Assembly: GCF_003018115.1 (NCBI RefSeq)
Contig: NZ_CP027457.1
Strand: one strand, 5' to 3'
Length of the DNA stretch: 64,000 nucleotides
Origin: Escherichia coli
GTDB lineage: Bacteria > Pseudomonadota > Gammaproteobacteria > Enterobacterales > Enterobacteriaceae
The position numbers are program-made. Below, piece after piece: positions 43,701 to 46,700 of the stretch (position 1 is its first letter; each line of letters opens with the position of its first letter).

Positions 43701-46700
43701 GGATTCAGAGCTTGATCTGTGGATGGAAAGCCGGATTTACCCGGCGATAACTGCGATCCCGGCACTGGCGGGCATGATTACCGCGATGGTTACGCAGGGC
43801 TATGAGTATCGTCGTGATGACGATATGGCATTGTGGAGTTCTGCAGATCTGACTTATTCCATTACATACGAGATGTGAGGACGATATGGCAACACCAAAT
43901 CCCCTGGAGCCGGTAAAAGGTGCCGGTACCACACTGTGGGTTTACACCGGCAAGGGTGATGCTTATGCAAACCCGTTGTCAGACGATGAGTGGACGCGCC
44001 TGGCAAAAATAAAAGATCTGACCCCCGGCGAGATGACGGCAGAATCCTACGATGATAACTATCTGGATGATGAGGATGCTGACTGGGTATCCACCGGGCA
44101 GGGGCAGAAATCTGCCGGTGACACCAGTTTTACGCTGGCCTGGAAGCCGGGCGAGAAAGGGCAGCGCGATTTGATTGCCTGGTTTGACAGCAGTGAGAGC
44201 CGGGCCTACAAAATCCGTTTCCCGAATGGCACGGTGGATGTGTTTCGTGGCTGGGTGAGCGCCATTGGTAAAGCGGTGACCGCCAAAGAGGTGATCACCC
44301 GTACGGTAAAAATCACCAATATCGGTCGTCCGTCGCTGGCGGAAGATCAGGGGGACATCACACCGGTCACCGGTATTACCGTGACGCCACCAACGGGCAA
44401 TGTGGCAAAAGGTCAGAATATCACCCTGACCGTGGCTGTTCAGCCGGAAGGGGCGACGGATAAAACCTTCCGCGCCACGTCGGCGAATCAGAATTTTGCG
44501 ACCATTACCGTGAAAGGGAACACGATCACGGTGAAAGGTGTTGCGGCCGGTAAAGCGCAGATCCCTGTTGTCACCGGCAATGGTGAGTTTGCGGCGGTGG
44601 CGGAGATCACCGTCACGGATGGCGCTGCAGGCTGAGAGGGGAGATAAAGCATGTTTCTGAAAACAGAACAATTTGAATATAACGGTGTGTCTGTCACGCT
44701 TTCTGAGCTGTCTGCGCTGCAGCGTATTGAGCATCTTGCCCTCCTGAAACGGCGGGCAGAAGAGGCAGAAGCCAGCGGCAACCTGCAGGTGAGCGTGGAA
44801 GACCTTGTCAGAACCGGGGCGTTTCTGGTGGCGATGTCCCTGTGGCATAACCATCCACAGAAAACGCAGTCACCGTCAATGAATGAGGCCGTGATGAAGA
44901 TAGAGCAGGAAGTGCTCACCACCTGGCCTGCCGATGCCATTGCCCGGGCGGAAGACGTTGTGTTGTGCCTGTCCGGGATGATCGAAGCTGTTCGTCCGGA
45001 TACTGATATTACTGAAGTGGCGAAAAATAACACGCTGACTGATGATGATTTTTCTGCGGGAAAGTCTTCGACGGCGAGCTGAACTTTGCCCTCAGACTGG
45101 CGCGTGAGATGGGGAGACCCGACTGGCGCGCCATGCTTGCCGGGATGACATCCACCGAATATGCCGACTGGCGACGTTTTTACCGCACGCATTATTTTCA
45201 CGATACCCAGCTGGATATGCATTTTTCCGGGCTGACGTACGCCGTACTCAGCCTGTTTTTATACGATCCGGATATGCATCCCTCGGATTTCAGTCTGCTT
45301 GTCCCCCGGCGTGAGGAAGCGCAGACGGAGAGGCCGGATGAGGAAGACATGCTGATGCAGAAAGCGGCAGGACTTGCCGGAGGCGTCCGGTTCGGCGGGG
45401 AGGGCGGGGGCGATATTTCACCTTCTGCGGATGTGGTGGATGTCAGCGAGGATGATGTCGCATTAATGATGGCTTCTGCGGGGATTTCCGGAGGTGTGAG
45501 ATATGTCCCAGCCGGTTGGTGATCTTGTTATTGACCTGAGTCTGGATGCGGTCCGTTTCGATGAGCAGATGACCCGCGTAAGGCGTCATTTTTCAGGACT
45601 GGAGACTGACGCCAGAAAAACCGCCAGTGCTGTTGAGCAGGGGCTGAGCCGTCAGGCGCTGGCTGCACAAAAAGCCGGGATGTCCGTCGGGCAGTATAAA
45701 GCGGCCATGCGAACCCTGCCTGCACAGTTTACGGATATCGCCACGCAGCTTGCCGGTGGTCAGAATCCCTGGCTGATCCTGCTGCAACAGGGCGGTCAGG
45801 TGAAGGACTCCTTCGGCGGGATGATCCCCATGTTCAGGGGGCTCGCCGGTGCGATCACCCTGCCGATGGTCGGGGTCACCTCGCTGGCGGTGGCGACAGG
45901 TGCGCTGGTGTACGCCTGGTACCAGGGAGATTCCACGCTTTCAGCGTTTAATAAAACCCTGGTTCTTTCCGGTAATCAGTCCGGACTGACTGCCGATCGT
46001 ATGCTGACTCTCTCAAGAGCCGGGCAGGCAGCAGGGCTGACGTTTAACCAGGCGAGAGAGTCACTGGCAGCCCTGGTGAATGCCGGTGTGCGTGGTGGTG
46101 AACAGTTTGATGCCATCAACCAGAGTGTCGCGCGTTTTGCGTCTGCATCCGGTGTGGAGGTGGATAAAGTCGCTGAAGCCTTCGGGAAGCTGACCACTGA
46201 CCCGACGTCGGGACTGATGGCGATGGCGCGCCAGTTCCGTAACGTGACGGCAGAGCAGATTGCGTATGTTGCACAGCTGCAGCGTTCCGGAGACGAGGCC
46301 GGGGCATTGCAGGCGGCGAACGATATCGCCACGAAAGGCTTTGATGAGCAGACCCGTCGCCTGAAAGAAAACATGGGAACACTGGAGACCTGGGCGGATA
46401 AAACAGGGAAGGCATTCAAATCGATGTGGGATGCCATTCTGGATATCGGTCGTCCTGAATCCTCAGCGGATATGCTCGCCAGTGCGCAGAAGGCATTTGA
46501 TGAGGCGGATAAAAAATGGCAGTGGTACCAGAGCCGGAGCCAGCGCCGGGGAAAGACCTCCTCTTTTCGTGCGAACCTTCAGGGGGCATGGGATGACCGG
46601 GAAAATGCCCGTCTGGGTCTGGCAGCGGCCACGCTGCAGTCGGATATGGAAAAAGCCGGTGAACTGGCGGCAAGGGACCGGGCTGAGCGTGAGGCGTCAC

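Follow-up and report, generated by a model that had tools for sequence, protein, structure and literature searches.

Near the 3' end of a phage tail gene, the window (the whole stretch of 64,000 nucleotides of Escherichia coli DNA analyzed here) carries what is very probably a functional lambda-type programmed -1 ribosomal frameshift site, located in the tail-assembly chaperone genes G and T of a lambdoid Stx1a prophage; we put the probability of this reading at roughly 93%. The anatomy of the site, its homology, its synteny, and its conservation were observed directly, and the coordinates of all features are collected in Table 1.

Table 1. Positions of the G-T frameshift element, its neighboring genes, and RNA families detected in the window.
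Feature	Position	Strand	Basis or description
V homologue, major tail protein gene, directly upstream of G	43886..44635	+	ORF; matching records "phage tail protein" / "major tail protein V"
Gene G, tail assembly chaperone, zero-frame product of 143 aa	44651..45082	+	ORF, PF06894, TIGR01674, RefSeq "gpG: phage tail assembly chaperone G"
Two-frame overlap (G frame and -1 frame both open)	45049..45082	+	31 nt plus G stop
Slippery heptamer G_GGA_AAG	45058..45064	+	Zero frame GGA-AAG, -1 frame GGG-AAA; both Gly-Lys
T segment, -1 frame	45058..45522	+	154 codons, heptamer to stop; C-terminal half of the 290-aa G-T fusion
Predicted RNA fold downstream of the heptamer	45072..45142	+	Outer stem 45072-45079/45135-45142 encloses hairpin 45098-45113/45118-45133
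First ATG of the T frame	45109..45111	+	T start in RefSeq/PGAP and some phage records
H homologue, tape-measure gene, 859 aa	45503..48082	+	ORF and annotation; strong GGAGG Shine-Dalgarno
MicL sRNA, inside cutC	3543-3850		Rfam, gathering level
ES036	7786-7828	-	Rfam, gathering level
isrK, prophage early region	19678-19754		Rfam, gathering level
C4 antisense RNA, prophage early region	19779-19866		Rfam, gathering level
STnc100, just downstream of the stx1 genes	27471-27684		Rfam, gathering level

A slip site in the only stretch open in both frames

The heptamer lies in the X_XXY_YYZ register of the G codons GCG, GGA, and AAG, with the G stop codon 15 nt downstream, and the surrounding sequence (45050-45085) reads TTTTCTGCGGGAAAGTCTTCGACGGCGAGCTGA. 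As a preliminary description of this DNA had proposed, the site is near the 3' end of G and the T ORF occupies the -1 frame, which is stopped at 45046-45048, open from 45049 onward, and ended by the stop at 45520-45522; the interval assigned to the feature in that description runs exactly from the first base of the heptamer to the T stop. Exact inspection for a disruption of the heptamer or of the T frame found both undamaged. The overlap listed in Table 1 is the sole stretch that is open in both frames, and it contains the heptamer, so a productive shift must happen there. The G protein, whose start is preceded by the Shine-Dalgarno-like sequence GAGAGGGGAG, ends in DDDFSAGKSSTAS directly before its stop, while the T segment, read from the heptamer, begins with GKVFDGELNFALRLAREMGRPDWRAMLAGM.

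The word GGGAAAG is not enriched in the window, with 13 copies on the two strands against 8.45 ± 2.9 expected, and the significance of the site therefore rests on register, geometry, and homology rather than on counts. We scored ORF geometry for all 43 X_XXA_AAG heptamers of the window, and only the one at 45058 combines a long zero-frame ORF upstream (137 codons), a nearby zero-frame stop (7 codons), and a -1 frame that runs on for 154 codons and is closed 3 codons upstream. Heptamer geometry and homology together are far beyond chance.

The homology concerns both halves of the predicted product. The G protein alone scored 172.7 bits against Pfam PF06894 (cut-off 27), and the conceptual 290-aa G-T fusion matched PF06894 and PF06223 as well as two NCBIfam equivalogs, TIGR01674 (163.2 bits, cut-off 74) and TIGR01715 (199 bits, cut-off 77), the latter covering fusion residues 143-252; all four models scored above their curated cut-offs. 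The PHROGs profile phrog_32165, with 290 positions, models the entire fusion as one protein, and the PHROGs class of the hits is "tail." A search for solved structures of the G half or the T half found none. Gene order is that of lambda: In the order V-G-T-H, the overlapping G/T pair is preceded by the major tail gene and followed by the tape-measure gene, the H start overlaps the T end by 20 nt, and further lambda-like neighbors follow on both sides, with Z and U before V and the rest of the tail module after H.

Access to the T frame

In RefSeq/PGAP, T is a stand-alone protein of 137 aa (WP_071532372.1; window 45109-45522, positions 20459-20872 of the homologous locus in NZ_CP024289) that carries no ribosomal-slippage join with G. 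This annotation amounts to an alternative reading, in which T would be an independent gene initiated at ATG 45109 and the heptamer a conserved coding coincidence, and the "phage tail assembly protein T" of RefSeq as well as the record of phage PhiR12_2_star do begin at this codon. Several observations make such a start highly improbable. The sole Shine-Dalgarno-like sequence at ATG 45109, GTGAG, abuts the codon with zero spacing, unlike G and H, which have well-spaced GA-rich or GGAGG sites, and the ATG lies inside a hairpin predicted to be stable. The TIGR01715 match begins 12 residues upstream of the ATG (which is fusion residue 155), and the -1-frame residues GKVFDGELNFALRLARE that precede it are conserved in the family and fall inside that model. 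In tblastn searches, alignments of the T segment start at residue 1 or 2 in most of the relatives listed, which include N15, phi80, cdtI, and Fels-1 and reach down to 31% identity. The position of the first ATG in the T frame shifts among relatives, whereas the slip position is fixed, and the curated records of N15 and phage LLS mark a -1 slippery sequence at the homologous position. The lambda literature, moreover, has gpGT as the product of -1 frameshifting. With T homology extending upstream of ATG 45109 and no usable ribosome-binding site there, we conclude that T is reached by frameshifting and that ATG 45109 is probably not a real initiation site; the separate, ATG-initiated T found in RefSeq/PGAP and in several phage records follows an annotation convention and does not constitute data.

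A fused product could also arise if RNA polymerase, rather than the ribosome, slipped on the template. Apart from the presence of an A-run nothing specific speaks for this, and we consider it hardly conceivable and rejected it as the source of the fusion: The run is only 3 nt long, far below the homopolymer lengths known for RNA polymerase slippage, the heptamer obeys the rule of tandem tRNA re-pairing, and the shift in lambda is ribosomal, being sensitive to modification of tRNA-Lys (PMC3296357).

Conservation of the slip site

The G-T segment is widespread in E. coli. Over its 872 bp it was 100% identical in eight complete genomes, all from human or bovine sources, and matches to it occurred at 8,096 places in 3,643 of the 5,426 genomes searched. 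We then compared 83 loci, namely lambda, PhiR12_2_star, the NZ_CP024289 locus, and 80 loci from viral contigs that are 98-100% identical at the protein level, relatives so close being informative on population conservation and not on covariation. One locus with a variant G start (ATGTTTCTTAAAAC) was left out of the scoring, and the in-frame heptamer was kept in 82 of the 82 remaining loci, 25 nt from the end of G. Two loci of this set were unusual in T. One (L039) lacks a single nucleotide in a T-run of the T frame, so that T ends prematurely after 98 codons; this reflects either a decaying prophage or a sequencing error. The other is a mosaic that is of the window type through G and up to ~90 nt past the heptamer and then changes to a lambda-type T; this switch places a recombination junction inside the conserved N terminus of T.

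To widen the sample, viral contigs were scanned with a pattern for the conserved T motif, and 65 distinct sequences were obtained. At the homologous position, 46 of these have GGAAAAG, 10 have GGGAAAG as in the window, 3 have AAAAAAG, and 6 carry other variants. AAAG at heptamer positions 4-7 is present in 62 of the 65, so that what is shared is a lysine codon, AAG, with an A in front of it. Three loci read GGCAAAATAG or GGAAAAATAG along this stretch, and in these the G stop would apparently follow directly after the lysine codon (A_AAA_TAG), an arrangement that, if true, would imply a P-site slip with a stop codon in the A site.

A predicted RNA fold downstream of the heptamer

Some -1 frameshift signals include an RNA stimulator, a hairpin or pseudoknot located 5-9 nt past the heptamer, and we examined the fold predicted downstream of the heptamer. 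Its outer stem (45072-45079/45135-45142) begins 7 nt after the heptamer, a spacing canonical for stimulators of -1 frameshifting, and it encloses a hairpin (45098-45133) that contains ATG 45109. The segment 45058-45160 has a minimum free energy of -45.8 kcal/mol, corresponding to z = -3.9 relative to dinucleotide shuffles. Among 13 lambda/N15-like sequences, 90.6% of the cells are paired and 5 pairs are doubly changed; one of the changes is a compensatory replacement of G-C by A-U, which entails a Gly-to-Ser substitution on one side and a synonymous change of an Ala codon on the other. These data would fit a frameshift that depends on the stem and its enclosed hairpin as a downstream stimulator.

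Broader comparisons speak against such a dependence. In 48 diverse family sequences from the viral-contig scan, pairing falls to 79%, and the 8 doubly changed pairs do not stand out from the controls, with 6.3 in shuffles (77 of 500 of which reach 8) and 9 after a +1 slide. RNAalifold, run on this diverse set, did not recover the predicted fold and returned only a trivial hairpin of 4 pairs. When compared with 1,000 synonymous recodings, which average -34 kcal/mol, the native sequence reaches z = -1.85 only, with 3.5% of the recodings folding at least as well, and this value lies within the range of other T/H windows, 2 of 26 background windows reaching z = -1.88 and -2.1. Lambda itself is said to shift without requirement for a defined downstream structure, the effect of downstream sequence reportedly being at most modest in the work of Levin et al. 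from 1993. Dependence on a downstream stimulator is hence unlikely, and the fold follows for the most part from the conserved LAREMGRPDWRAMLAGM coding sequence, going only marginally beyond what the protein dictates. It is quite unlikely, too, that the stem-loop at 45072-45142 is a real, lineage-specific modulator of frameshifting in the sub-lineage of lambda, Stx phages, and N15; in that case it would, together with the polymorphism of the slip site (GGGAAAG, GGAAAAG, or AAAAAAG), tune the gpG:gpGT ratio among lambdoid phages, and it would also sequester the spurious ATG 45109.

The host prophage and its flanks

The prophage that harbors the element has a close counterpart: Window positions 24651-50595 share 99.7% identity with the Stx1a prophage of E. 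coli O178:H19 2012C-4431 (NZ_CP024289), in which stxA1a/stxB1a are annotated at positions 1516-2742 of the matching locus. From this correspondence we infer that the window prophage probably carries the Shiga toxin 1a genes at about 26166-27400 (ORF 26157-27113). Identity to the NZ_CP024289 prophage drops after about 50.6 kb. The tail-tip gene J (50628-54374) is an intact ORF of 1248 codons in the window, and the annotation of NZ_CP024289 gives its counterpart as a pseudogene with a frameshift. A search for tRNA genes in the window gave none.

On the left, the prophage is flanked by argS-cutC-torYZ-cmoBA-yecE (window 1-10900). The right end (57800-64000) matches potA/pepT/phoQ, where NZ_CP024289 has yecD/aspS, and among the genomes of the E. 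coli collection, coverage of 50400-64000 at any single place does not exceed 85%. The mismatched flanks suggest either a large inversion or recombination involving two lambdoid prophages or a chimeric assembly.

A mismatch of this kind, with potA/pepT/phoQ facing a left flank from the yecE side, suggests rearrangement and is what might be expected if the prophage were cryptic, its tail genes unused, and the slip site intact in sequence but idle, with the heptamer kept by recent descent only. The truncated T of the related locus L039 and the J pseudogene of the closest genome (NZ_CP024289) point in the same direction. Against this, the tail ORFs read between 42 and 54 kb, from Z, U, V, G, T, and H through the 1248-aa J, are all open, and G-T is identical in the eight genomes mentioned above and conserved at thousands of places in E. 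coli. We regard an idle site as distinctly improbable, and such a reading would bear on the usage of the element and not on its nature.

Comparison with lambda and other frameshift systems

The preliminary description had likened the arrangement to that of lambda, and an alignment with lambda (J02459) bore this out: The heptamer G_GGA_AAG, its register, and its distance of 15 nt to the G stop are identical, and the order V-G-T-H is shared. The local DNA context TTTCTGCGGGAAAGT is invariant between the two, even though the adjacent C terminus of G is rich in substitutions and indels. When both are built from DNA, lambda gpGT and the window fusion are 71% identical. Differences concern the surroundings of the site. 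G has 143 aa in the window and 140 aa in lambda, its C-terminal tail before the slip site being diverged and rich in indels; the -1 frame becomes open 3 codons ahead of the heptamer, as against 13 codons in lambda; T ends in GVRYVPAGW rather than GVRYG; and the T/H overlap is 8 nt in lambda, shorter than that of the window. These differences leave the frameshift mechanism untouched.

The programmed -1 frameshift of lambda G/G-T is reportedly described by Levin, Hendrix & Casjens (1993) and by Xu, Hendrix & Duda (2013, 2014), and the frameshift in tail-assembly chaperones is said to be conserved in long-tailed double-stranded DNA phages (Xu, Hendrix & Duda, 2004), with N15 gp14/15, phi80, HK97-like phages, and Stx phages as reported cases. 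These systems likewise have two overlapping ORFs between the major tail and tape-measure genes and a -1 slip at a lysine codon. The heptamers vary: N15, phi80, LLS, cdtI, and Fels-1 use G_GAA_AAG and VT1-Sakai uses A_AAA_AAG, while the window has the lambda variant. E. coli dnaX (A_AAA_AAG) resembles the window site in that slippage is at a lysine AAG codon, which is read by tRNA-Lys (mnm5s2UUU). The dnaX frameshift needs an upstream Shine-Dalgarno-like element together with a downstream hairpin, and its shift reaches ~50%. In the window, by contrast, direct reading of the 20 nt before the heptamer revealed no dnaX-like upstream Shine-Dalgarno-like stimulator, the downstream fold is at most a candidate stimulator, and the rate known from lambda is only a few per cent.

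A mechanism by analogy with lambda

The element in the window has every sequence feature that the lambda mechanism requires. That slippage takes place here, how often it does, and that the products act as chaperones would follow from the analogy with lambda. By this analogy, a majority of ribosomes would read G to its stop and yield the 143-aa gpG, and a minority, a few per cent in lambda, would slip back by one base on G_GGA_AAG, whereby tRNA-Gly would re-pair from GGA to GGG and tRNA-Lys from AAG to AAA. A shifted ribosome would bypass the G stop and read the T frame to 45522, producing the 290-aa gpGT. In lambda, the zero frame is retained ~96% of the time on G_GGA_AAG and slippage depends on the mnm5s2U34 modification of tRNA-Lys (PMC3296357), and the molar ratio of the two products, ~30:1, is crucial (PMC5009743). 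The two lambda proteins are chaperones that act on gpH and gpV (PMC5009743, PMC3296357, PMC7618472); the G moiety present in both attaches to the tape-measure protein, the T moiety of gpGT attaches to the major tail protein, and neither gpG nor gpGT is a component of the virion (PMC5009743). In the prophage studied here, the G part of gpG and gpGT may correspondingly coat the tape-measure protein H, and the T part may recruit the major tail protein V, so that a low and fixed gpGT:gpG ratio, set by the slip frequency, would be needed for correct tail assembly. The intact tail-assembly chaperone mechanism that the preliminary description proposed thus appears to hold, on the level of sequence only.

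Implications for annotation and for the toxin phage

The feature is the textbook lambda G-T frameshift, residing in a common lambdoid prophage, and as such it is already known. What the present analysis adds is confined to a point of annotation, namely that T should be a slippage join, and to the negative-to-inconclusive result for a downstream stimulator. Beyond correct annotation the site is of little consequence, and the annotation point is a practical one: As T is annotated as a separate protein, the annotation of this prophage, and probably that of thousands of E. coli prophages, lacks the 290-aa G-T product, which is thereby missing from protein databases. For the biology of the phage, the Stx1a prophage keeps, as judged by its sequence, a complete lambda-type tail-assembly module, which is of modest relevance to the question of whether infectious particles of the toxin phage can still be formed.
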